This document shows, piece after piece, positions 21,678 to 63,674 of a DNA stretch of 64,000 bases (positions within the stretch are counted from its first letter, which is position 1; the number at the start of each line of letters is the position of its first letter). Source of the DNA: an uncultured Bdellovibrionales bacterium (GTDB taxonomy: Bacteria > Patescibacteriota > Minisyncoccia > Moranbacterales > UBA1568); assembly GCA_964436855.1 (NCBI GenBank), contig CAYTED010000001.1:21-64020 (forward strand), written 5' to 3'. Below the pieces are notes generated by a model. It made no database searches. It worked only from the letters and a program-made list of their open reading frames with translations, and had not been told where the DNA came from. A program made the translations under genes and the position numbers.

Positions 21678-22814
21678 TTAGTTCTCGACAAACAAAGAAA
21701 GAAGCGTTTTCGCGCTTTCCTTCCACGAGAAAGAAGAGAGCGTCCGAGATCCGTCCGCAAGCGCTCTTTCCCGCCATTGGTCGTCAATGGAAGCATTGTA
21801 CAATATTTCCGCCGCACCGGCAATGCCGTGTGGATTGAAAAAAACCGCTGCAGAAGAAGCGATTTCCCGAAACGGCGGGATGTCCGAACAAGCAACCGGC
21901 ACCCCTTGCGATAGCGCCTCAAGAATCGGAATGCCAAACCCTTCGTAGAGCGACGGAAATACGAAGAGGCGTGCGCCAGCATAGAGCGCCGGAAGATCAG
22001 CACTCTCGATAAATCCCGGAAAAATCACCCGCCCGCCGATACTGGTTTCTTTGATTGCCCGATCGATTCCCATATCGAAATGATGCGCTTTCCGATTCCC
22101 GACAAGCACCAGCGAATACCCTGCGCTCGGAAGTTTCGATTGCGCGAATGCTCGAATGAGAAACGGGATATTTTTTCGCGGTTGGAGCGTCCCGACCGAA
22201 AGAAGATATTTCTCCGGCAGATGGTATTTCTTTTTCACACGAATAACATCTTCCGGCATCGCTTTCTGCAAAAATTCATCGCCGATTGCATTGTAGAGAA
22301 CACCCACTTTCTCCGGACTGACACCGTAATATTTGACAATCTCCGCTTGAGTAAATTTCGATGTTGCAAGCACTCGATATGACCGACAAATCGACCGCGG
22401 AATAAGAAGCGCAAGAAACAGTCGGTCCTTCCACCCGATTAACTGCGGAAACGCGCGAAACGACACATCGTGAATATGCGTAAATATCTTCGTCCGTTTT
22501 GGTGTAAAAAACGGAATAATGTACTGCGTATGAAAAACATCAATCTGATTGTTCCAAAAATATCTCGGAAGCGTCCAAAAATTCCACGTGTAACGATTCC
22601 TTGTCGGCAAAGAAATCAATTGAATATTCTCCTTTCCGGCAAGCTGGAGCCGACGAGAAATCTGCGAGAGACGCTCCACATTCGTCTCATCGGTAAGAAG
22701 AAAATAATGATTCTCTCGATCAAGCATAACGAGCTCCCGCGTGAGATGAAAGAAAACCATCTCATCCCCCGTGCGTTGTTTTCCGAGCAATCGAATGTCA
22801 ATGGCGATGTTCAT
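21678..22814 (-). CDS. Glycosyltransferase family 4 (GT-B).
   Basis: The C-terminus carries the GT4 signature FPSLYEGFGIPILEALSQGVPV. Confidence 0.8.
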   Translation of the reverse strand: MNIAIDIRLLGKQRTGDEMVFFHLTRELVMLDRENHYFLLTDETNVERLSQISRRLQLAGKENIQLISLPTRNRYTWNFWTLPRYFWNNQIDVFHTQYIIPFFTPKRTKIFTHIHDVSFRAFPQLIGWKDRLFLALLIPRSICRSYRVLATSKFTQAEIVKYYGVSPEKVGVLYNAIGDEFLQKAMPEDVIRVKKKYHLPEKYLLSVGTLQPRKNIPFLIRAFAQSKLPSAGYSLVLVGNRKAHHFDMGIDRAIKETSIGGRVIFPGFIESADLPALYAGARLFVFPSLYEGFGIPILEALSQGVPVACSDIPPFREIASSAAVFFNPHGIAGAAEILYNASIDDQWRERALADGSRTLSSFSWKESAKTLLSLFVEN

Positions 22815-25669: not shown

Positions 25670-25747
25670 AGTAAGAACATTGTATCAAGAAACGGTAAAT
25701 GAGAAAAAGAAATCTAAACAAAGCTTCGCTTGCAGTCGCATTATATT

Positions 25748-25785
25748 CTCCCCCCCCCCTCTAAGGGGAGGATTAAGGAGGGGTC
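25748..25785. repeat. Solo copy of the G/C-rich palindromic repeat family (B1-type): ctccccccccccTCTAAGGGGAGGATTAAGGAGGGGtc.
   Basis: It shares AAGGGGAGGAT-N-AGGAGGGGT with the copies at 38170-38216 and 39567-39603. Confidence 0.6.
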
Positions 25786-26658
25786 TTGTTTTTCTTCCTC
25801 GTCCGTAAGTGGAGCTTTGATACAGATGCGAGATGAAGTGAAGCGTTGCTGACAATGTCTGTAAGCAGGAAGTGAAACGGCAAACGGACATTGAGCGAAA
25901 CAAATCCGCATCTTTCAAAGCGAAACGCAGGACAAGAGTTTACTTTGCATACTTTCTTTTGCGATCAAAAGAAAGTATAAGAAAAAATAACCATAATAAA
26001 AAACGCTTACGGTCTCCAGTAACACTGGGGGAATTCCGTAAGCGTTGTGTTGTGCGCAAACAGGCATGGCGTGGCTGCGTCCTCGTCGATGAGCGCGACG
26101 CCGATAGCCTGGCGCGGGATTTCTCCCGTGCCCGCTGCGCGGTTGCGATTATACCACAAAAAGAGAAAAATGTGGTCGGCGAGAAGAAGTGAGTACTACG
26201 AGCATCGCAGGAAGCATCCCTCCTTATGCGCTCTCTCACCCCTCGTTCGCCGATTGAAACGTGTCGTGATAACGTACCACCCCTACCACGACCGTAGGTA
26301 TCCGACGCTCCCTATCTTACACGGGAGGCCGGACGGTTAAGAGGTTCATGGACGCGCCGGAGCCGCTGTGGCCGCCGCCGATGCCGACGCCCCTTGGTTT
26401 TCTCCTTGAGATCGCCACCACGTCGGTAGCTTCTTTACCCCGAAATATTCCGGACAAAAAAGCTACCCGCGTGGCGCACCAAAAAAGAGTGCTTCGCTTC
26501 AAACTTCACAATCGCAATCATTCAAAGAACATTAAGGATATTCTTAACAGAATTCCCCTCATCCGTCAAATTTTGGAACTTCAGTATAAATTTATATTAT
26601 AACAAATAAATCAAATATTGTCAATACCAATCACACAATGTCTATTTTTATGGCTTAT

Positions 26659-29461: not shown

Positions 29462-29493
29462 CTGCATTTCTTGATTCCTGATTCTTAATTCTT
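29462..29493. repeat. Tandem heptamer-like repeats (tTGATTC x4) directly upstream of the GT2 start.
   Basis: The sequence is ttcttgattc-ctgattc-ttaattc-ttgattc. Confidence 0.5.
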
Positions 29494-29506
29494 GATTCAT
29501 CAACAT

Positions 29507-30457
29507 ATGAAACTCATCGTCAATATCCCGGCTTACAATGAAGAAGAAAAAATCGGCGAGACCATCAGACGAATTCCGCGATCATTTCCGGGAATCTCGG
29601 AAGTGTTGGTACAGGTAATCGACGATGGCTCGAAAGACCGGACGGTCGATGTTTCAAAAAACGCCGGCGCGGATTTCGTGTACCAAAACGGCATAAACCG
29701 CGGTATTGGAAAAACATTCCGACACGCTGTCGAACGCTCTCTCGAAAACGGCGCGGACATTATGGTCAATATCGATGCCGACGGGCAATTCAATCCGAAC
29801 GATATCGAAAAACTCATTCGCCCGATCCTCGAGCACAAGGTCGATATGGTCAGCGCCGATCGATTCACCGAATCAAGCGCGGAAAATATCCCGTGGATAA
29901 AAAATATTCTCAATCGTTTCGCCGCGCGGATCATCGGCGGATTCTTGAATACCGCTATCCCCGATCTCACCTGTGGCTTCCGCGCCTACAGCCGCGAAAC
30001 CCTGCTCCGTCTCAATCTCCCCGGCGATTTCACCTACACGCAAGAAGTCATTATCGACGCACTCGGAAAAAACCTGAAACTTTCTTTTATCCCGGTCAGC
30101 GTGACTTACTTTGCCGATCGGAAATCCCGCGTCGTCAAAAGTATCTTCGGATACTTGAACAATAGTTTCCGCATTATCCTGAAAGCCGTTCGCGATGTCC
30201 GCCCGATGAAATTCTTCGGCATCCCGGGGCTCGTCCTTATTTTTCTCTCGCTTGTTCTCTTTGCTTTCTTCCTCGGAAACTATTTCACTGACTTCAAAAT
30301 AACCCCGTACCGGAATTACCTTCTCTTTTCCGGCGGATTTTTCTTGATCGGACTTCAATTCTTCGTCTTCGCTCTTATGGCTGATATGATTAAAACCAAC
30401 CGTCGCCTGACCGAAGATCAGATGTATTTGTTTAAAAAGGAGAAATACAAAAAATAA
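29507..30457 (+). CDS. GT2 polyprenyl-phosphate sugar synthase (Dpm1/GtrB/ArnC-like) with a C-terminal membrane anchor.
   Basis: It contains VNIPAYNEE…VIDDGSKDRT…NIDADGQ and two C-terminal TM helices. Confidence 0.8.
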   Translation: MKLIVNIPAYNEEEKIGETIRRIPRSFPGISEVLVQVIDDGSKDRTVDVSKNAGADFVYQNGINRGIGKTFRHAVERSLENGADIMVNIDADGQFNPNDIEKLIRPILEHKVDMVSADRFTESSAENIPWIKNILNRFAARIIGGFLNTAIPDLTCGFRAYSRETLLRLNLPGDFTYTQEVIIDALGKNLKLSFIPVSVTYFADRKSRVVKSIFGYLNNSFRIILKAVRDVRPMKFFGIPGLVLIFLSLVLFAFFLGNYFTDFKITPYRNYLLFSGGFFLIGLQFFVFALMADMIKTNRRLTEDQMYLFKKEKYKK

Positions 30458-30466
30458 ATCTAAAAT

Positions 30467-30568
30467 TACAATTTCCAAATAAACTCCAAATCTCAATGTT
30501 TGAAATCCAAAACTTTTGATTTGTAAGTTTTGATTTAATTATTGTAATTGATTTGGGATTTGTAATTT
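30467..30568. repeat. AT-rich imperfect palindrome with an AAATC-rich left arm and a GATTT-rich right arm.
   Basis: aattacaatttccaaat… pairs with …atttgggatttgtaatt. It lies between the GT2 stop and the GT4 start. Confidence 0.45.
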
Positions 30569-30589
30569 TGAATTTGGTGCTTTAAATCT

Positions 30590-36964: not shown

Positions 36965-37447
36965 TCACTCGAGGCCGAGGAAGATGCGCATCATCTCGGG
37001 CGAAAGCGTGCCTTTGCTTTTTTCTGCAAGCTCAAGAAGCGCACTGAGTTGCCCTTCGTTCAGAGGACGTTGAGCGGTCTCTTCGCTCAAAAAAAACTCA
37101 ATGACCGGTCGATACCTACGATCAAGCAGCAAGGGCGCCAGCGAATGATAATCGCTCTGCGCGCCAAGCAGGAATTTTCTTAAACTGGCCACTTGATTGG
37201 GATGTGGAATATTCTTCCCACCCGTCCAGCGATCAATCGTTGCCCGACTTGCAATATCTGAACGAACAACATCCATCTTGGTTTTTCCAGCAGCCTCAAT
37301 AACTGCCGACAGCAACCGACCCATCTCTTTTTTCTGCGCAGGGTCAGTACGAGCTAAATCCACCGCTCGCTTAAACTGCTCAAACGCTTCTTTCGCGTCC
37401 ATTGCTATCTCCTCATAAAAGCTGTTATTGGGAAAAAACCGTCGCAT
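36965..37447 (-). CDS. Hypothetical protein, possibly with an HTH. Its start codon lies inside the right copy of the 35-bp inverted repeat.
   Basis: A 160-aa ORF with no family recognised. The ATG at 37447 is the second ATG of the repeat. Confidence 0.3.
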   Translation of the reverse strand: MRRFFPNNSFYEEIAMDAKEAFEQFKRAVDLARTDPAQKKEMGRLLSAVIEAAGKTKMDVVRSDIASRATIDRWTGGKNIPHPNQVASLRKFLLGAQSDYHSLAPLLLDRRYRPVIEFFLSEETAQRPLNEGQLSALLELAEKSKGTLSPEMMRIFLGLE

Positions 37448-37479
37448 TCATTCCGTTCTGAATTAGGACACTCTGTGTC
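37445..37479. repeat. Right copy of the perfect 35-bp inverted repeat (partner at 1-35).
   Basis: Verified as an exact reverse complement of 1-35. Confidence 0.85.
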
Positions 37480-37512
37480 AGAGTGCCAGTAAAGAATAAT
37501 ATAACGGATTTA

Positions 37513-38898
37513 CTATTCCGTCAATGGCTTTCGAGAAACAAGGGCTAAAAGGAGAAAGAAAAACAGAAGCCCGAAATGCGAAGTCCACAGCCAATGATCA
37601 AGAAGAAGACTCGGGATGATCGCAATAAGAATTGCGGATTGATGATTTTTGATTTTTCCCTCCAATAGGGCGGGCAGGGATTTTAGAATAGGAAGTAGAG
37701 CAGACACAAGAAATCCTATAAGCAACATGAGTCCAACAATCCCCAGCTCCGACCAAACAAGAAGAAAGACATTGTGTGTCGGTTGAATACTCCATACCGG
37801 ACGATCCGGTTCCTGCTTAATGATCTCTGCCGTGAAATTCCCCGCACCAACTCCAATCAAAGAATGTTCACCAATCAACGTTCGTGCATCCTGAAGCGAT
37901 ACAACGCGCTCTGAGACCGACCCTTCACGTTCGATTGTCGCTCTGTCAAAACGAGGAAAGATCTGTTCATGAAGTATAATACCGAACACGGCGACTGCTA
38001 CGCTCAATGTTCCAAATATCTGGTATAAGGTAAATGATTTTTGATCTTTGATTTTTGATTTTTGATAGACGATCATTCCGATTCCCATCACCACTCCGAA
38101 CCATGCCACCCGTGAAAATGTCAGAATGAGACCAAGGAGGATAATTATTGTACCCACTAAAAAAAGTACACCTCCTCCCCTTTCCAAGGGGAGGATCGAG
38201 GAGGGGTTGTGATCCTCTTTCAAAACCTCCCCCTGCCCCCTCCCTAGAAAGGAGGGGTGGAGAGAGAGAAACCCCATGACCAACACCAAAATCATTCCAA
38301 GAAACCCTCCCAAAATATTCGGATGCGGAAAGGTCCCATACGCACGCAACCATCGCTCATGATCAATTTTCAGAACAGATGTTCCTGCCTGTGACACCTC
38401 ATGCATACTCATGCCAAGAAGCGAAGAGCTGATGGATTGTTGCGAGACAAATTGCATGATGCCAATCCCGCTCTGTATCACGCCAGCAGCAAGTAAAACA
38501 AACACGACTTTCTTCATATCAATCTCCATCCCTCGCACCACAAAAAACAATCCCCCAGCAAAGAGTAATTTCACAAAAAAATACAAAGCGAGCATCTGAT
38601 CCCCTGCCCAGAAAATTGATGCCCCAGTCCATACTATGAAAAGCAATAACATCAATGTTGTCATTCCGACCGAGTCTCCGAGTGGAGGAATCTTGATTCC
38701 AGATTCTTGATTCCAGATTCTTTCTTTTATTGTACGAAATAATACTAAGGCAAATATCAGCAATAAAAGTATATCGGTACCATATAAAGCGACAACTCCA
38801 TACTCCCACTTCACTCCCCCAATGAAAGGCTCACGTAAAAAATACACCGTCTGAATCGGAAGGAGAAAGAGAAAAAAAAGAAAGAATTTATCCAACAT
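37513..38898 (-). CDS. O-antigen ligase/polymerase (Wzy_C) family membrane protein carrying an in-frame roughly 98-bp palindromic-repeat insertion.
   Basis: It has at least 10 TM helices. The Wzy_C motif …IGVGAGNF…PTHNVFLLVWSELGIVG is present. The ORF stays intact through the repeat (…LGRGQGEVLKEDHNPSSILPLERGGGVLF…). Confidence 0.65.
   Translation of the reverse strand: MLDKFFLFFLFLLPIQTVYFLREPFIGGVKWEYGVVALYGTDILLLLIFALVLFRTIKERIWNQESGIKIPPLGDSVGMTTLMLLLFIVWTGASIFWAGDQMLALYFFVKLLFAGGLFFVVRGMEIDMKKVVFVLLAAGVIQSGIGIMQFVSQQSISSSLLGMSMHEVSQAGTSVLKIDHERWLRAYGTFPHPNILGGFLGMILVLVMGFLSLHPSFLGRGQGEVLKEDHNPSSILPLERGGGVLFLVGTIIILLGLILTFSRVAWFGVVMGIGMIVYQKSKIKDQKSFTLYQIFGTLSVAVAVFGIILHEQIFPRFDRATIEREGSVSERVVSLQDARTLIGEHSLIGVGAGNFTAEIIKQEPDRPVWSIQPTHNVFLLVWSELGIVGLMLLIGFLVSALLPILKSLPALLEGKIKNHQSAILIAIIPSLLLDHWLWTSHFGLLFFFLLLALVSRKPLTE
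38037..38064. repeat. Heptanucleotide tandem repeat (GATTTTT x4, one variant) inside the ligase coding sequence.
   Basis: The sequence is tgattttt-gatcttt-gattttt-gattttt. Confidence 0.6.
38168..38265. mobile_element. ORF-less derivative of the palindromic element, with B1 and B2 halves adjacent, inserted in-frame in the ligase gene.
   Basis: B1 is cctcccctt-tcc-aaggggagg, a 9-bp stem, followed by gatcgaggagggg. B2 is acctccccctgccccctccctagaaaggaggggtggag. The two halves match the termini that flank the DUF559 gene. Confidence 0.65.
38690..38722. repeat. 14-bp tandem repeat (agattcttgattcc, about 2.5 copies) inside the ligase coding sequence.
   Basis: The sequence is ggaatcttgattcc-agattcttgattcc-agattc. 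Confidence 0.55.
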
Positions 38899-38970
38899 AA
38901 AACACCCGAATTATACCCAAAAAAGGCATTAAATGCTATCATTTCGCTATACGAATTTTGATTTATCGCC

Positions 38971-39567
38971 ATGCAATTCATCACCTTTTCGGGAGTCGAC
39001 GGAAGCGGAAAATCCACCCAACTCGAACTCCTGCAAAACAAACTCGAACAAGAAGGAAAGAAAGTCGCCTATTTTCACGCGATTGAGTTTTCGCTTGCAA
39101 ATAAACTCTCAAGAAATAAAAAGGTTGGAGATCAAGGAACTGGAAAATCAGTAACATCTGCATCTTTCCCTAGTATTTTATTGCGAAAAATCTTTCTCAT
39201 CATCGACCTCATCCGATTCCGGTTCTATTTCGCCAAACTACAAAAAGAGAATTACGATTATCTCCTTTCTGATCGATATTTCTTCGACACCGTCATCAAC
39301 ATTGAGTACCTACAAAAAAAGAATCTTTCTTTCATATTCAATATTCTTTATTCAATATTCTTTATTCATCCTCAAAAAGCTTTCTCCTTCGACGCCAATA
39401 CCGAAGCCATCATGTCCCGCGACCGAACACCCGAGCAAGGTATCGAATACCTCCGCGCGAAACAAGAACTCTTCAAACAGAAAATCAAGAATTGGAATAT
39501 GATCGAAATCAATGCGAACAGAGACAAAGAAAGTATTTTTCAAGAAATAAAAAATCTCGCAAGCTAG
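38971..39567 (+). CDS. tmk: Thymidylate kinase-like P-loop nucleotide kinase (divergent).
   Basis: The N-terminal FITFSGVDGSGKSTQ is the classic dTMP kinase P-loop. A DRY-like LSDRYFFDT motif is present. The gene contains an internal 14-bp tandem duplication at 39321-39365. Confidence 0.55.
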   Translation: MQFITFSGVDGSGKSTQLELLQNKLEQEGKKVAYFHAIEFSLANKLSRNKKVGDQGTGKSVTSASFPSILLRKIFLIIDLIRFRFYFAKLQKENYDYLLSDRYFFDTVINIEYLQKKNLSFIFNILYSIFFIHPQKAFSFDANTEAIMSRDRTPEQGIEYLRAKQELFKQKIKNWNMIEINANRDKESIFQEIKNLAS

Positions 39568-40004
39568 CCCCCCTCCCCTTTCCAAGGGGAGGGCAGGGAG
39601 AGGTATAAAAATGTATACCTTCAACCACATATCAACAATAGGCGCACGAAAAAATCTGCGAAAAAAATCAACACCTCAGGAAATAATTCTCTGGTCAAGA
39701 CTCAGAAAAAAAGCTCTTGGGTATAGATTTCGCAGACAACATGCCATGGGATCATATATTGTCGACTTCTGCTGCACAGAGAAGAAAATCATCATAGAAA
39801 TCGATGTATGGCAACACAAAGAAAATACCTCTTACGACTCAGATCGAACCACATACGTTCAAAACTTCGGCTACACAGTACTGCGCTTCTGGAATAATGA
39901 TATCAATGATAATCTGATAGGGGTCATCATGAAGATTGAAGAACATCTGAAGTAAACCGATACCTCCCCCTGCCCCCTCCTTGGCAAGGAGGGGTGAAGA
40001 TACC
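39567..40004 (+). mobile_element. Putative small mobile element: a B1-type palindromic terminus, a DUF559 endonuclease ORF, then a B2-type terminus.
   Basis: Terminus C (39567-39603) and terminus D (39962-40004) correspond to the two halves of the 38168-38265 repeat. The ORF fills the gap exactly. GGAGAGG in the C terminus serves as its ribosome-binding site. Confidence 0.55.
39611..39955 (+). CDS. DUF559 endonuclease-domain protein (Vsr/PD-(D/E)XK-like).
   Basis: The 114-aa product …ARKNLRKKSTPQEIILWSRLR…YRFRRQHAMGSYIVDFCC…IIIEIDVWQH… matches the DUF559 pattern. Confidence 0.7.
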   Translation: MYTFNHISTIGARKNLRKKSTPQEIILWSRLRKKALGYRFRRQHAMGSYIVDFCCTEKKIIIEIDVWQHKENTSYDSDRTTYVQNFGYTVLRFWNNDINDNLIGVIMKIEEHLK

Positions 40005-40016
40005 ACCACAACACCT

Positions 40017-41495
40017 ATGAAAAAATTCTCCTCGGCACTCATCTGGCTCACGATGTCGGAAATCATCTTCAATATCGCCGGATACATCATCCATTCCTCG
40101 GTCGGTCGCATCCTTGGTCCGGCGGATTACGGTCGATTTAGTATTATTGTAACGCTTACGACGATGGTCATTATCCTCATCGGGAATGGCATCCCGACCG
40201 CCATGTCCAAATACCTCGCTGAAATATTCGAAAGCGCACCTGAAAAAATTACAGGCATCAAACACAAAGCCATGCGTCTTCAGGCCATGCTCATGCTCGG
40301 AGTGACAGCTCTTTTCTTTTTCTCATCTCCACTTCTTGCCTGGGCACTTCACGATGCCACGCTCACCCCTCTCTTTCAGCTCTCAAGCCTCATCATCCCG
40401 TCCTTCGCCGTTGCATCGTTTTACTTCTACTACTACACCGGCCTTCATTTCTTTCGCCTTCAAGCCTTCCTCAAGACCATGCGCGCCCTTGGTCGCATCA
40501 TCTTCATCATTTCCTTTGCATACTTCTTCGGCGTACAAGGAGCAGTCTCCGGGTACATCGCCGCGCCACTGTTTGTTTTCGCTATCGCTCTCCTGTGCGA
40601 CACCTTCATCACGCACAAATATTTCCCGGCAACCAAGCAAGCAAAAAATCAAACCGTCGATTTTTCAGGGAAAACTCTCCTCGCCTATGCCTGGCCGCTT
40701 ACTCTCTTTCTTCTTTTTTATGAATTCATCCTCACACTCGATCTCTATTTCGTAAAAAGTCTCCTCCAAAGCGATTATCTGACCGGCATCTACAATGCCG
40801 CCATTACAGTTGGTCGTATCCCCTACTATCTCTTTTATGCACTCACTATCATACTCCTCCCCGCAATCTCCAAGACAACTGCCGAGCGAAACACCGAAGA
40901 AACCGAAAGCCTCGTAAACAAATCTCTCCGCCTCATGACCCTTCTTCTTTTTCCGATTATTACGCTCATGATCGCCTATTCCACACAAATCCTCAATCTT
41001 TTTTATGGCGCAAAATATCTCGATGCCGCAGCGCCGATGAACATCTTCACCATCGGCGTCGGATTTCTTACCGTTTTTTATGTCCTCTCTTTTGCCCTCA
41101 ATGGCGCGAATCTCGTAAAGATACCGATGAAACTTTCCTTTTTCGGTTTTCTTGGCATGATCATCCTCAATTTCCTTCTCATTCCGAAATACGAGCTCAT
41201 TGGCGCCGCCCTTTCAACAACGATTACCTCTCTTGTCCTTATGATTGCAATCCTCATTGCAACCGAGAAACACTTCAGCGTAAAGCTTCCCATCAAAACC
41301 ATCGTCCTCTCACTTATAAGCGCAGTTATTATTACAGCTCTTGCAAAATTCCTTCCCTATGGAATGATATCGTTCATTGTTTCCGGGACAGCGCTCTTCA
41401 TCCTTTACTTCATCCTCCTGAAGCTTTTCGGCGAACTAAAGCCATCCGACTGGGCTCCGTTTTCCAAACTCTTCAGAAAAAAATCCACCTCTTAG
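40017..41495 (+). CDS. Polysaccharide/oligosaccharide flippase (MOP superfamily, Wzx-like).
   Basis: The product is about 490 aa with 12-14 TM helices and typical Polysacc_synt architecture. I set the start after the D repeat. Confidence 0.7.
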   Translation: MKKFSSALIWLTMSEIIFNIAGYIIHSSVGRILGPADYGRFSIIVTLTTMVIILIGNGIPTAMSKYLAEIFESAPEKITGIKHKAMRLQAMLMLGVTALFFFSSPLLAWALHDATLTPLFQLSSLIIPSFAVASFYFYYYTGLHFFRLQAFLKTMRALGRIIFIISFAYFFGVQGAVSGYIAAPLFVFAIALLCDTFITHKYFPATKQAKNQTVDFSGKTLLAYAWPLTLFLLFYEFILTLDLYFVKSLLQSDYLTGIYNAAITVGRIPYYLFYALTIILLPAISKTTAERNTEETESLVNKSLRLMTLLLFPIITLMIAYSTQILNLFYGAKYLDAAAPMNIFTIGVGFLTVFYVLSFALNGANLVKIPMKLSFFGFLGMIILNFLLIPKYELIGAALSTTITSLVLMIAILIATEKHFSVKLPIKTIVLSLISAVIITALAKFLPYGMISFIVSGTALFILYFILLKLFGELKPSDWAPFSKLFRKKSTS

Positions 41496-41676
41496 AGCCT
41501 GTTGGAAAAGTCTCTTTCGTCGCGAAATTCCAGTTTTTTGAGCGAAAAAGATGAAGAGCGAGGAAGGCTATCAAGTCGATAACCTGACGAGCTGTGAATC
41601 TTTTGCAGCCAAAAAACTGGAATTGCAGCAGAATACGGACTTTTTCAACAGGCTCTTAGAACCTCTTGACTATTTC
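41494..41676. repeat. Roughly 180-bp imperfect palindrome with nested arms (agagcctgttggaaaagtc…gactttttcaacaggctct; aaattccagtttttt…aaaaaactggaatt).
   Basis: The arms are reverse complementary with few mismatches. It starts at the flippase stop codon. Confidence 0.55.
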
Positions 41677-52451: not shown

Positions 52452-55400
52452 TTAATAATACACCTTCACGTTCCCCTTCTCCGTCGTAAGTCCCGGAATA
52501 ATCATTCCGGAAATCTTCTTCCGAACGGGACGACGATCCGTGTTATCATCACCCTCATCGGATAAATCTCTCGGTTTCTCCATTATGACAGTTTGATGTT
52601 TCTTTGGAAGGTAGTGCGATTCAAGCTTCACTGTATCGGTTCGGATATGCGAGGCAAAGAGCGCATATTCGTTTGTGTCTTGCCGGAGACGGAGTATCCA
52701 TTTGTAATCGAGGGTTGTTTTCGGAAGATTCGCCGAAACACCATCGTACGCGATCGATTTGAACTCGATCGAAATCCGACCGAAACGATCTCTTTCCTTT
52801 TCAAAAGAAAGTTCGGTTCGATGACCAGCTGCATCGGTAAGAGTAACGGTCTTTATTTCTTTTTGCTTCTCCTTGTCATTCCGAGCAAGTCTTCGAGTTG
52901 AGGAATCTCTAAATTGAGGTCCCTCGACTTCGCTCGGGATGACAGAATCCATCATCACTACTGAAACAGATTGACTGAAAGCATCCATTCCGACGATATC
53001 AAGTTTCTGTACTTCGGGATTGAAAGAAATTTTTGCTTCAGGGGCGGTCTTGTCAATCTTGATTGTTTGGATCTTCACTTCTTCCTTGTTTCCCATTTGG
53101 TCGGTCGAGAAATACTGAATAGTCGCAATCCCTTCTTGAGAAAGAACAAACGGATCGGTATATATCCTCCATGTCGTACCACTATCAAATGAGTATTCTG
53201 TCTTTTGAATACCGGTTCCATTTTCATTGTCAGCTGCGGAAAGCGCGATCGAAACATCACTCGTATACCAACCATTTGCGCCTTCCGTTCCGGAGAGAGA
53301 AAGCGTTGTGACTGGAGGAATAGTATCAGTCTCCCCTCCTCCGGTAACCGTATCGCCTTCAATCGCAATCGCTTGTTCTTCTTCTGCCAAGAGAGTGGCC
53401 GTTCCTCGGAGAGTCGCCGTCGATTCTTTCGCTTCGCCCATATCCGGATCTTCGGTAATCTTCGTCGCTTCAATACGATAGTTACCCTCTCCCGTTCCTT
53501 GGGTCAAGATCTTGTATTCGCCATCTTCCGGATTCGGAATGGTGATGAATTCGTTTTTAGTCTGATAACCGGTATAGAAAGCGCCTTCAATTTCGTTGAT
53601 GATGTCTCCTGTTTTGAAGTTCTTTCCGATCCGTTTTCCGGAAGGGGAAACGACTTGAATGTCAATGGGAGAGAAAACCTTAATCAAGAAAATGTTCGGC
53701 ACATTTACTTCTATGATTTCTTTGCATTCTGATCGACCTGACAATTCGTGGAACACGAGACATCGCGCCCTACTCGGCAGCTCGGTATGTTCAGCATCGA
53801 GAATTTCTTCCTTATCTGAAGGAAGAGCTTCAGCACTTGAGAGAGGGACGGTGCCATCTCCGGAAGAAAAAGAGAATCCATTTTCAGGATTATCGGAATA
53901 AAAATCAAGAGGCATTCCATTCTCCCACTTACCCAACTTAGAAGTATGGATGAGCTTTATTTTTTCAATTGATTTTTGAATCGACTGTTTGCCAATAACA
54001 CTCAAACTTCTTACGCCGTTAAGCGCATTAACATTCATTGTTAAATTTTCCAAAAACTCATTCCTCGAATAATTCTCCGGGTACGATCGCATTGTTTCAC
54101 TTCCAAGATCAAACAAATAATCATAATCCGGAAGCAGTTGTTTTACCGAAAACACAGCTCCACGAATATATTCATACAGACTCGAGTATCCCGAGTGTTC
54201 CGCTTCAATCGTAAAGTGATGCTTGAGGACACTGTCGAGCAAATCTGTCCCAAACTCTCCTCCCTCCCACATTAAGTAAGCTTTTGGCGCACCCCGATGC
54301 GGCGTACCGAGCGTTACGAGCTGATCAACATCACTCTGATACGCATCGCCTTCGATATATTCCCTTGCTACCAACCCGCCCATCGAATGTGCGGCAATAT
54401 CGACCTTTTCCGATCCGGTTTCATTTTTGATGTCCGTGATTTTTTGTTTCAAATCATTCGCCGTATCGCGATTGTCCCGTTTCCAATCGTAAGGAAAGAG
54501 AAAGAGGTTCCTCCCTTCTTCATAGCCGTTTTTCTTGAGTGATGCGACAAGATCGTCGTAAATATGAAGAATCGGATCAAGCACCCATTCTCCGTTGTCA
54601 TTCTTTTCCGAGCCAAGAATCCCGGGAACGATGATGAGCGGATCGGCCAAGAGATCATTTTGTCGGAAACCGGAGTATGCGACCGTTCCCGAGACTTTTT
54701 TCCCTTCACCAAAATGACCATAGTCATTCGATACATCTCCCCGCGGACCGGTGATATCGCCGTAATAATTATTGCGAAGCGAGACGATCGGTTCGCAAAC
54801 TGCTCCTTCCGGACAGCTTCCATCTCCAATCGAAACCGCTTCGTTCGCCTGACGGTAGAAATCCTCGGTATTTCCGATCGGGATATTGTTGTCGCTTCGC
54901 TTGTACGGAATATAGTACGAAAAATTCGAGTTAATGATAGAAAGAGTATCCGCTCCCTCACCCCACCGGTATGGGTATTCCGCGCGAATGTCGGAAGAGA
55001 GACTCCCCTGGAAAAGGGAATTCTCAATCCGAAGCCGCCCTTCGAAAAAATGAAGGGTCGGGAGTCCGGGAGTCGTTCCGAAATCACCTCCGGCTTCTTC
55101 ATTCTCTTTCCCGCCGTCAAGGAAGTGAACGTGTCGGAAAAGAGATGGGTCATTTTCGACGCTCCCTTGGAAAAAAACTTGGTAGTGCGCGGTTTCGTCT
55201 TTCGGAGCGAACACAATCGGATTCGTTTCCGTTCCGTTTGCAAGTACCCGCCCACCCTGAATCTGGAAGAGTCCGTATCCGCCAAAAGAATCGGAAAGGG
55301 TGATATGGACGCCTTCTTCGATCGTAAGTGTCGCACCGGATACGATCACTGGCTTGTCGAAAGAAAGTTCCGAGTCTTTGATCCAGACAGTATCCTCGAC

Positions 55401-55502
55401 AATGGAGATAACACTTTCGTCTTCGGGAACTTCCTGCGCGAAGACGACTGTGGGACAAAGTAAAACAGGAACCGAAAGAATTCGGAAGAGATTACTTCGC
55501 AT
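52452..55502 (-). CDS. 1016-aa secreted multidomain protein: signal peptide, beta-helix-like N-terminus, alpha/beta-hydrolase (lipase/esterase, GxSxG = AHSMGG), and C-terminal Ig-like/OmpL47-type barrel domains.
   Basis: The signal peptide is MRSNLFRILSVPVLLCPTVVFA. The lipase elbow is IAAHSMGGLVAREY. The C-terminal domain is TTLSLSGTEGANGWYTSDVSIALSA…TEYSFDSGTTW…. Confidence 0.6.
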   Translation of the reverse strand: MRSNLFRILSVPVLLCPTVVFAQEVPEDESVISIVEDTVWIKDSELSFDKPVIVSGATLTIEEGVHITLSDSFGGYGLFQIQGGRVLANGTETNPIVFAPKDETAHYQVFFQGSVENDPSLFRHVHFLDGGKENEEAGGDFGTTPGLPTLHFFEGRLRIENSLFQGSLSSDIRAEYPYRWGEGADTLSIINSNFSYYIPYKRSDNNIPIGNTEDFYRQANEAVSIGDGSCPEGAVCEPIVSLRNNYYGDITGPRGDVSNDYGHFGEGKKVSGTVAYSGFRQNDLLADPLIIVPGILGSEKNDNGEWVLDPILHIYDDLVASLKKNGYEEGRNLFLFPYDWKRDNRDTANDLKQKITDIKNETGSEKVDIAAHSMGGLVAREYIEGDAYQSDVDQLVTLGTPHRGAPKAYLMWEGGEFGTDLLDSVLKHHFTIEAEHSGYSSLYEYIRGAVFSVKQLLPDYDYLFDLGSETMRSYPENYSRNEFLENLTMNVNALNGVRSLSVIGKQSIQKSIEKIKLIHTSKLGKWENGMPLDFYSDNPENGFSFSSGDGTVPLSSAEALPSDKEEILDAEHTELPSRARCLVFHELSGRSECKEIIEVNVPNIFLIKVFSPIDIQVVSPSGKRIGKNFKTGDIINEIEGAFYTGYQTKNEFITIPNPEDGEYKILTQGTGEGNYRIEATKITEDPDMGEAKESTATLRGTATLLAEEEQAIAIEGDTVTGGGETDTIPPVTTLSLSGTEGANGWYTSDVSIALSAADNENGTGIQKTEYSFDSGTTWRIYTDPFVLSQEGIATIQYFSTDQMGNKEEVKIQTIKIDKTAPEAKISFNPEVQKLDIVGMDAFSQSVSVVMMDSVIPSEVEGPQFRDSSTRRLARNDKEKQKEIKTVTLTDAAGHRTELSFEKERDRFGRISIEFKSIAYDGVSANLPKTTLDYKWILRLRQDTNEYALFASHIRTDTVKLESHYLPKKHQTVIMEKPRDLSDEGDDNTDRRPVRKKISGMIIPGLTTEKGNVKVYY

Positions 55503-63586: not shown

Positions 63587-63674
63587 CACTCTTAGTGTCA
63601 TCCTGAGCGAGTCTGCGAGTCGAAGGATCTCAGTTTGGTCATTGGATTTTGATTATTGGTTATTGATTTATCGT

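Follow-up and report, generated by a model that had tools for sequence, protein, structure and literature searches.

An inverted pair of triplex-type motifs in frame in an O-antigen-ligase-like gene, and related motif pairs around DUF559 nuclease genes

How does a palindromic repeat come to lie within an intact protein gene, and what might carry such repeats from place to place? This question is raised by the 64,000-nt stretch of contig CAYTED010000001.1 that was analyzed here (the window, used for the whole stretch), which comes from a bacterium of the candidate phyla radiation (CPR). An open reading frame (ORF) of the window, encoding an O-antigen-ligase-like protein of the Wzy_C family, carries such an element in frame. 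The original prediction had described it as a repeat behaving like the palindromic elements of Rickettsia, linked to a putative endonuclease-bearing master copy 1.3 kb away. We favor the following reading, to which, taken as a whole, we assign a probability of about 60%. The element is a pair of BoxC/PIT/triplex motifs (TM), tolerated in frame in a loop of the ligase; it is the empty form of a motif - DUF559 - motif unit, and it would have spread with the help of the DUF559 nuclease. Earlier descriptions do not cover the nested unit itself, which is present here and across phyla.

The motif pair in the ligase-like gene

The class-II intrastrand triplex motif was named BoxC, later PIT elements and then TMECO, and its published pattern is CCCTCNCCC-N3-6-GGGNGAGGG-N3-GGGNGAGGG (Holder 2015, PMC4666352). 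Such motifs form a stable triplex in vitro, often occur as palindromic pairs and are tied to local genome instability; in the roughly 30 years since they became known, no function, means of spread or associated gene has been assigned to them (PMC4666352). Both stems quoted in the original prediction are present in the ligase-like gene, CCTCCCCTT-TCC-AAGGGGAGG at 38174-38194 and CCCCTCC-CTAGAAA-GGAGGGG at 38237-38257. The BoxC/PIT/TM architecture was recovered: a C-rich arm of ~7-9 nt, a loop of 3-6 nt and a perfectly complementary purine arm. The mirror arm (G·G:C, A·A:T or T·A:T triads) is provided by GGAGGGGTT (38200-38208), which mirrors AAGGGGAGG, and on the minus strand GGGGGAGG mirrors GGAGGGGG (38224-38243). 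Triplex formation by the ligase element is predicted from this match to the published motifs. In each unit, a hairpin of 7-9 bp with a C-rich and a G-rich arm precedes a second G-rich arm, the mirror image of the first.

Triplex motifs were searched with a custom-written detector that allowed at most one mismatch in the third arm; like our control gene calls, it is a crude tool. It reported exactly five motifs in the window (25750+, 38174+, 38225-, 39572+ and 39962-) and none in five shuffles. The left part of the ligase element matches 39569-39605, upstream of a DUF559 gene, in 31/38 aligned positions, and the right part is identical in 35/40 positions to 39961-40000, downstream of it. A further copy of the left unit is found at 25747-25786 (31/40). 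The motif pair in the ligase is oriented like the one at DUF559, and the two are 82-88% alike. The units of each pair form terminal inverted repeats, the left unit agreeing with the reverse complement of the right one in 28/41 positions in the ligase and in 30/41 at DUF559.

The motif is not restricted to this genome. The exact 21-mer CCTCCCCTTTCCAAGGGGAGG occurs in at least 120 loci of species-representative genomes, where by our own estimate ~0.3 matches would be expected by chance in 596 Gb. Among the matches listed, the hosts are Cyanobacteria, Alpha- and Gammaproteobacteria, Bacteroidota, Planctomycetota, Nitrospirota and Patescibacteria, and the 21-mer is nearly always followed by GG(T/A)GGGGT, the mirror third arm. 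Several Nitrospirota loci have the same layout as the ligase gene, a motif, ~17 nt and an inverted motif. The motif is multicopy, conserved, far more frequent than chance and present in many bacteria. Judged by its sequence, the element belongs to the cross-phylum BoxC/PIT/triplex-motif family (class-II, purine-motif intrastrand triplex) and is not a genome-private repeat.

The carrier gene is intact. Its frame (37513-38898, minus strand) runs uninterrupted across the repeat for all 461 codons, and no frame break that would make it a pseudogene was found. The Wzy_C domain matches residues 250-394 (Pfam, E=2.9e-19), and all positions that are invariant or nearly invariant across 30 orthologues (alignment A1) are retained. 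On these points the original prediction was right. The protein has 484 homologues, the best of them, apart from itself, 59% identical, and its nearest source-named homologues are annotated as O-antigen-ligase family proteins of Candidatus Moranbacteria. An identical protein is recorded by NCBI and by an independent Logan assembly.

The similarity shared with the other copies delimits the element to 38171-38263. It is therefore 93 bp long, exactly 31 codons (aa 213-243), and not 98 bp or 33 aa as initially proposed. Three of the six frames of this segment are free of stop codons, and the ligase frame is among them. Hydropathy places the insert between the hydrophobic segments 192-212 and 244-265. 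In an AlphaFold2 model derived from 30 orthologues, helices are predicted at 193-213 and 238-260 with a coil between them (predicted local distance difference test, pLDDT, <50 at 222-230 and 234-238). Both agree with the proposed position in a loop between transmembrane helices. This loop probably faces the cytoplasm, as suggested by the helix count back from the large conserved loop and by the Lys/Arg-rich orthologues at this position.

Comparison with orthologues indicated that the segment is neither universal nor ancestral, the check that the original prediction had proposed. Nothing comparable is present in 28/30 aligned orthologues. The HPN..TFSR interval spans 68 aa in the window and a median of 52 aa in 118 orthologues, most of which lack the insert. 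Between conserved anchors the window protein has 46 aa and orthologue P0002 has 30. As this amounts to a net increase of only ~16 aa, the insert has replaced part of the ancestral loop (consensus ..YYVSGIKYKRSWKC..). A related insert, matching in site, orientation and frame, is found in only one other orthologue, P0012; both inserts share ACCCCTCCTC(G/A)ATCCTC.CCTT, which encodes PSSIL. Since P0012 is also the nearest neighbor of the window ligase, on a short branch of a neighbor-joining tree (372 ungapped columns), the insertion may, tentatively, predate the split of the two lineages. Other orthologues carry different repeat-derived inserts in that loop (VIPTES..GI..LGMT, VIASDQRERGNP.., YHLSLI.. 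and motif-like PLxxGG peptides). The alignments mark the loop as a hypervariable, permissive hot spot for repeat-derived inserts.

In-frame carriage of the triplex motif is not unique to the ligase and occurs in several other phyla. About 10 of the 128 21-mer matches listed lie in long ORFs with real domains on either side. Pfam-confirmed carriers are UvrB (two genomes), TruB, an RluA-type pseudouridine synthase, a Nostoc nitrite/sulfite-reductase-like (NIR_SIR) protein and RsmF. In AtpG, the ATP synthase gamma subunit, of a member of the Saccharibacteria, two whole motif-pair inserts are present (364 aa vs a 285-position profile). In detail, the gene from an uncultured Saccharibacteria genome (L023, 2339-2962) contains five detected triplex motifs and two in-frame inserts that are alike, ..NPSYSRRGINAEGGSYVTDVSSGSPPRVGGVREG.. 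and ..TPPSLPYVRGGKNADSGSSIADVSSGSPPKVGGARGG... In-frame carriage of small repeats is also documented for RPE, BRE, RUP/SPRITE and enterobacterial elements (Delihas 2011, PMC3184786). Thus, the comparison with Rickettsia stood insofar as a dispersed palindromic repeat lies in frame in a loop of an intact gene. The view that this is unusual or specific to this genome did not, as small repeats in frame are known elsewhere (PMC3184786) and this cross-phylum motif is itself carried in frame by housekeeping genes of other phyla (UvrB, TruB, RsmF, AtpG). The ligase insert is a further case of a known behavior, in which a loop tolerates a small in-frame repeat. Essential proteins of CPR bacteria and cyanobacteria repeatedly receive inserts of 10-35 aa from triplex-motif pairs, which bears on the gain of loops in compact genomes and on annotation and alignment artefacts in such proteins.

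The ligase coding sequence contains other repeats as well. Tandem repeats at 38035-38066, 37643-37657 and 38691-38722 consist of the 7-nt unit TGATTTT (x4.6 and x2.1) and the 14-nt unit TCTTGATTCCAGAT (x2.3). They are translated as ..KSKIKDQKS.., ..GKIKNHQS.. and ..RIWNQESGIK.., and ligase orthologues have equivalent IKYQ/KSKI stretches; similar arrays are located at 29469-29498 and 30443-30575 of the window. Since adding or losing a single unit would cause a frameshift, this surface-glycan gene could conceivably undergo phase variation. A second repeat family (GTCATYCYGAGCNAGTC...GGAATC) has an arm in frame in the ligase ORF at 38660-38693, encoding ..IKIPPLGDSVGMTT.., a full palindrome at 52873-52950 and a further copy at 63597-63630. 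The complete palindrome is carried in frame by a second gene, a 1016-aa ORF (52452-55502, minus strand), where it encodes ..VIPSEVEGPQFRDSSTRRLARNDK... The second repeat type is also found in two different loops of ligase orthologues (VIPTES..GI..LGMT).

Motif pairs around DUF559 genes

The original prediction had placed an endonuclease-bearing copy 1.3 kb from the ligase element, and a DUF559 gene is indeed located there, exactly between two halves of the same repeat. The protein matches the DUF559 profile (PF04480) with 120.1 bits at a cut-off of 20.6. Its gene stands where the ligase copy has its 15-nt spacer (38171-38263 vs 39569-40000). An empty and a filled pair thus coexist in the window, and their spacers share no sequence. 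Searched against PDB, a DUF559 profile (alignment A2) matched 3hrl with E=5e-31 and the homing endonuclease I-Bth0305I (3r3p) weakly, with E=0.0065. A survey of PD-(D/E)XK nucleases groups DUF559, 3hrl and 3r3p together (PMC3424549). The exact window protein was absent from the gene collection, its only record being a 69-aa fragment (P0138) with 100% identity. A tblastn search for further DUF559 copies in the window gave only insignificant matches at 22482-22634 (E>=0.04), within another ORF.

The arrangement tmk - DUF559 - flippase is conserved in the syntenic locus of a related genome (L001-L008). The DUF559 proteins of the window and L001 are 77% identical (nonsynonymous divergence dN 0.14, synonymous divergence dS ~1.9, saturated), and the flanking motifs differ in 1/33 positions upstream and 3/35 downstream. 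As the flanks are nearly unchanged although synonymous sites are saturated, the motifs are either constrained or being homogenized.

The association was then found in other genomes. In a set of 80 unrelated DUF559 loci from metagenomes, ranging in GC content from 31 to 71%, 49 had motifs. No motif lay inside the gene. Within 100 bp of it, the motifs reached a density of 4.9 per kb on the upstream and 4.4 per kb on the downstream side, and at distances above 500 bp it fell to 0.05-0.15 per kb, a 30-100-fold difference. The motifs are also oriented, with 36 plus and 15 minus upstream and 32 minus and 8 plus downstream. A full inverted pair was present in 20 of the 69 loci for which both flanks were available, and at some of them (e.g. 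L163 and L181) the flanking motifs form, by eye, 33-bp inverted repeats that are identical or one base apart. Gaps next to DUF559 held a motif in 48/100 cases, compared to 2/19 other gaps of the same loci and 18/364 gaps in genomes chosen for the motif. The upstream motif ends at most 12 nt before the predicted start in 14/34 loci. The same arrangement was seen in six isolate genomes (Neisseria, Deinococcus, Pseudanabaena, Picosynechococcus, Azospirillum and Sphingomonas; five by the detector, one by eye). The association of the motif with DUF559 is strong, oriented and cross-phylum, and it exists only when seen from the DUF559 side. DUF559 proteins have been reported to be 14-fold enriched among predicted targets of programmed inversion (PMC9881135), an enrichment that inverted repeats flanking DUF559 would produce. 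In the literature that was searched, no paper linked DUF559 or YcjD to BoxC/triplex repeats. Plasmids gave few DUF559 matches (41 records, several of them mislabelled chromosomes) and no sign of plasmid-borne spread.

The DUF559 gene ycjD of E. coli is a further example. In strain K-12, the YcjD C-terminus overlaps a degenerate motif arm, and a canonical BoxC lies ~170 bp downstream. Between the two (L139, 5205-5420) there is a partial duplicate of the ycjD 3' end (GAGACGGTGCTGGAGAATATTC..). The ycjD region is largely missing or replaced in ~38% of 5426 complete E. coli genomes. This absence was considered as a clean empty site and rejected because uropathogenic E. coli (UPEC) 536 shows a larger rearrangement: TetR/RND efflux genes are located at the ycjD position (L222), with a motif remnant at the junction.

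Table 1. Triplex motifs, motif pair and associated genes in the window
Feature	Position	Strand	Remarks
Wzy_C / O-antigen-ligase-like ORF	37513..38898	-	Carrier of the element; 461 aa, intact; ORF list and Pfam
Inverted pair of triplex motifs	38171..38263	.	93 bp, no ORF between; read on the minus strand as aa 213-243 (..HPSFLGRGQGEVLKEDHNPSSILPLERGG..); limits of similarity to other copies
Triplex motif a	38174..38208	+	CCTCCCCTT / tcc / AAGGGGAGG / atcga / GGAGGGGTT; pyrimidine and purine arms, then the mirror third strand
Spacer between the ligase motifs	38209..38223	.	15 nt; nuclease gene at the equivalent position in the DUF559 locus
Triplex motif b	38224..38257	-	CCCCTCC / tttctag / GGAGGGGG / ca / GGGGGAGGTT
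Triplex motif upstream of DUF559	39572..39604	+	Starts 5 nt past the tmk stop codon; third strand GGGAGAGGT ends 6 nt before the ATG
DUF559 nuclease ORF (Vsr-like PD-(D/E)XK)	39611..39955	+	114 aa; nested between two motifs; Pfam E=5e-35
Triplex motif downstream of DUF559	39962..39996	-	~20 nt ahead of the flippase start
Solo triplex motif	25750..25784	+	Intergenic; detector and similarity

Some further features of the window and of the tmk-flippase site were recorded. After the solo motif, ~1 kb (25670-26650) contains no ORF above ~106 aa, no tRNA and no Rfam match, a long and apparently non-coding stretch that is unusual for CPR. An RNA family was considered for the element and rejected: Rfam gave only sub-threshold, microRNA-like hairpin matches in 37000-41000 and none at gathering scores window-wide, and no tRNAs were found. 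Over the window as a whole, C strongly exceeds G on the plus strand; CCTCCCC-type 7-mers are expected 6.4 times each and their complements 0.9 times. From the flippase stop codon, an 83-nt imperfect palindrome (41490-41660; 72% complementary, 5-nt center) extends, which is not a triplex motif and resembles a further structured repeat. No empty motif pair was found in the tmk-flippase gap of the genome encoding P0002 (L221, 1650-1850). The long palindrome ..GGTAACATTTCTCTCGAGCGAGTCGG...CGACAGAGCGAGTGAGAAATGTTCGAC.. occupies the gap, and the site turns over between repeat families.

A possible mechanism and its alternatives

The same motif-pair family brackets DUF559 in the window and across phyla, which argues that the ligase copy is the empty form of the motif - DUF559 - motif unit. 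The motif pair would have joined the DNA encoding the hypervariable ligase loop, displacing part of an older loop, as the comparison with orthologues suggests. Its persistence may be explained by the 31 codons in a stop-free frame, by a flexible coil rich in Gly, Pro, Ser, Leu, Glu and Arg between membrane helices and by the untouched Wzy_C core. Taken together, these features point to a tolerated passenger, like the RPEs of Rickettsia. DUF559, a nuclease resembling Vsr and I-Bth0305I, may act on the structured repeats. Nicking or cleavage and repair-templated copying would then spread or homogenize motif pairs, and by analogy to RAYT transposases and REP/REPIN elements DUF559 would be what mobilizes the repeats.

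A wider proposal is that DUF559 nucleases (E. coli YcjD and relatives) are the missing protein partner of BoxC/PIT/triplex repeats. Both would form a cross-phylum selfish or domesticated system like RAYT-REPIN, whose ORF-less pairs spread through genomes and, in the gene-dense genomes of CPR bacteria and cyanobacteria, lodge repeatedly in frame in protein loops. We regard this as possible, with the odds somewhat against it. If true, genes such as those for Wzy-type ligases, AtpG and UvrB would gain new peptide segments from motif pairs. For DUF559, a large family, structures have been solved but no role is known, and the association gives DUF559 and the triplex motifs each a candidate partner. 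The origin of the repeats and the role of DUF559 become approachable by experiment, directly in E. coli, with YcjD and BoxC DNA.

Several observations weigh against the favored reading. According to Holder et al., stable triplexes are not found in vivo, and the E. coli motifs have no mobility genes nearby (PMC4666352). The single-strand fold of the ligase element is not significantly better than that of shuffles (z = -1.8; ViennaRNA, which models hairpins only). A full HMMER scan of 1.84 billion representative proteins returned no significant match of the translated insert except itself, so the whole translated pair is not shared in the ligase frame. A 40-aa query had likewise yielded no candidate in a word index. 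The proposed search for other proteins with the translated repeat was negative at this level, and it succeeded at the DNA level, where in-frame copies were found elsewhere. DUF559 was rejected as a general neighbor of the motif, as a DUF559 ORF lies within 300 bp in only 1 of the 128 exact 21-mer matches listed. This rarity fits a single-copy enzyme that serves many non-autonomous copies and a nuclease gene that lodges in motif pairs equally well. In the E-x-D-G-x-x-H motif of the window protein, E63, D65 and H69 are kept, and the nearly invariant G66, present in at least 90% of DUF559 relatives and in the syntenic L001 orthologue, is replaced by V. Sequence comparison marks the window DUF559 locus as old and vertically inherited. 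The orthologous tmk-flippase gap in L221 has neither motifs nor DUF559 and contains only a different palindrome. By eye, no direct repeat suggestive of a target-site duplication surrounds 38171-38263 or 39569-40000, whose boundaries are uncertain by a few bases. No mobility event was seen, and no single site was found in both an empty and a filled allele with exact boundaries. Finally, the closeness of the upstream motif to the start in 14/34 loci means that motifs might simply supply a ribosome-binding site and a 3' hairpin; the motif-to-start spacing is too variable to decide on this explanation. Given the missing target-site duplication and clean empty/filled alleles, the L221 gap, G66V, the possible Shine-Dalgarno role and the ratio of 1/128, mobilization by DUF559 is something that we infer. 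For the same reasons (old syntenic locus, G66V, 1/128), the role of a master copy assigned to the DUF559 locus in the original prediction is unproven.

Host processes might instead suffice to spread or regenerate the motifs, through replication slippage or template switching at structured DNA and through ectopic gene conversion between copies, and DUF559 would not be the driver. DUF559 would then be a free-standing homing-endonuclease-like gene lodged in motif pairs, or the user of a portable ribosome-binding site and 3' hairpin, and the ligase copy would result from gene conversion with another pair, e.g. the one 1.3 kb away. The co-orientation and the 82-88% likeness of both pairs are in line with this, as are the excess of motifs over DUF559 genes, the profile match to I-Bth0305I and the lack of most of the ycjD region in ~38% of E. 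coli genomes. GGAGG is part of the third strand, whose end lies 0-12 nt ahead of the start codon in 14/34 loci, and the motifs have been tied to local instability without mobility genes (Holder et al., PMC4666352). However, host processes leave unexplained why inverted motifs stand on both flanks at about tenfold the background frequency. They also do not account for the conservation of the flanks despite saturated synonymous sites, unless the nuclease recognizes the flanks, in which case this explanation merges with the favored one. We consider an origin by host processes alone unlikely.

A second alternative is that the insert is retained for a function, either as a flexible cytoplasmic linker or as a structure in DNA or RNA. 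Such a structure could make replication, transcription or translation pause, or could promote recombination or phase variation of a surface-polysaccharide gene. Surface-glycan genes are classic phase-variable loci, and slippage at the 7-nt and 14-nt tandem repeats of the ligase ORF could shift its frame. In addition, the motifs within the ORF are near-perfect though the insertion may predate the P0012 split. On the other hand, the loop is hypervariable, with many unrelated repeat-derived inserts in orthologues, and the same motif occurs in unrelated housekeeping genes. PIT elements showed neither promoter nor terminator activity in E. coli, and purine-motif triplexes do not form in RNA. Retention for a function is thus improbable.

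That the ligase is a decaying pseudogene still open by chance, or the segment an assembly artefact, is hardly credible: although the best orthologue, at 59% identity, is too distant to measure selection on the window copy and the first 35 window bases duplicate internal sequence in inverted form, a possible hint of assembly trouble elsewhere, the 461-codon frame is open with the Wzy_C invariant positions of 30 orthologues kept, the insert comprises exactly 31 codons, NCBI and the independent Logan assembly give the same protein, and analogous in-frame copies occur in many independent assemblies. The duplicated end itself was recorded as follows. Positions 1-35 are the perfect reverse complement of 37445-37479, just upstream of the ORF 36965-37447, with identity from base 1; the internal copy includes the hairpin GGCACTCTG-aca-CAGAGTGTCC. 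It may be that a promoter or leader element is repeated here, that an invertible segment of 37 kb has its boundary at this point or that the contig end was misassembled.

Comparison with known repeat systems

RPEs, ascribed to a report by Ogata et al. in 2000, are said to be palindromic repeats of ~100 bp that lie in frame in intact protein genes at permissive sites, where they add 30-50 aa. The ligase element likewise lies in frame in an intact gene at a permissive loop, the likeness being behavioral only. To our knowledge, RPEs are confined to Rickettsia and lack the triplex-motif architecture, and we know of no nuclease-bearing form. BRE of Bordetella, RUP/BOX/SPRITE of pneumococcus and YPAL/RU-2 and RU-3 of enterobacteria are fused in frame within or at the ends of ORFs, as is the case here (Delihas 2011, PMC3184786). 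They differ in sequence and structure, and none has been described in CPR or as a triplex motif.

In its architecture only, the window resembles the REP/REPIN elements with their RAYT (Nunvar 2010; Bertels & Rainey 2011, PMC3116915): short GC-rich hairpins form inverted doublets with a spacer, many copies exist and a single-copy enzyme gene is flanked by the repeats. The RAYT enzyme is an IS200-like Y1 transposase, whereas the repeat-flanked gene in the window is a Vsr-like PD-(D/E)XK DUF559 gene for which a mobilizing role is proposed; no Y1 transposase scan of the remaining window was made. The window repeats carry a third mirror arm and are shared across phyla, while REPs are lineage-specific. 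I-Bth0305I (PDB 3r3p) and Vsr share the Vsr-like PD-(D/E)XK fold class with DUF559, the similarity being remote (3r3p, E=0.0065). A small nuclease gene in the middle of a palindromic site recalls homing endonucleases; here there is no intron or intein, and the site is a multicopy structured repeat. Like miniature inverted-repeat transposable elements (MITEs), the element has terminal inverted repeats. A target-site duplication was not seen by eye, and the ORF-bearing form encodes DUF559 and no known transposase, whereas MITEs have an autonomous, transposase-encoding relative.

The closest known system is BoxC/PIT/TM (PMC4666352). It shares with the window element a C-rich arm of ~9 nt, a loop of 3-6 nt, a complementary G-rich arm, a short loop and a mirror G-rich arm, and both are multicopy, highly conserved, present in many bacteria and often arranged as inverted pairs. 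The sequence variant differs, with CCTCCCCTT/AAGGGGAGG/GGAGGGGTT in the window and CCCTCNCCC/GGGNGAGGG/GGGNGAGGG in the published motif. The host is a CPR bacterium, and the ligase pair lies inside a 461-codon ORF, whereas all 23 motif copies of E. coli K-12 are intergenic (PMC4666352), a trait of that set and not a structural one. Moreover, the published motifs come without an associated mobility gene (PMC4666352), while here DUF559 genes are nested within the motif pairs.

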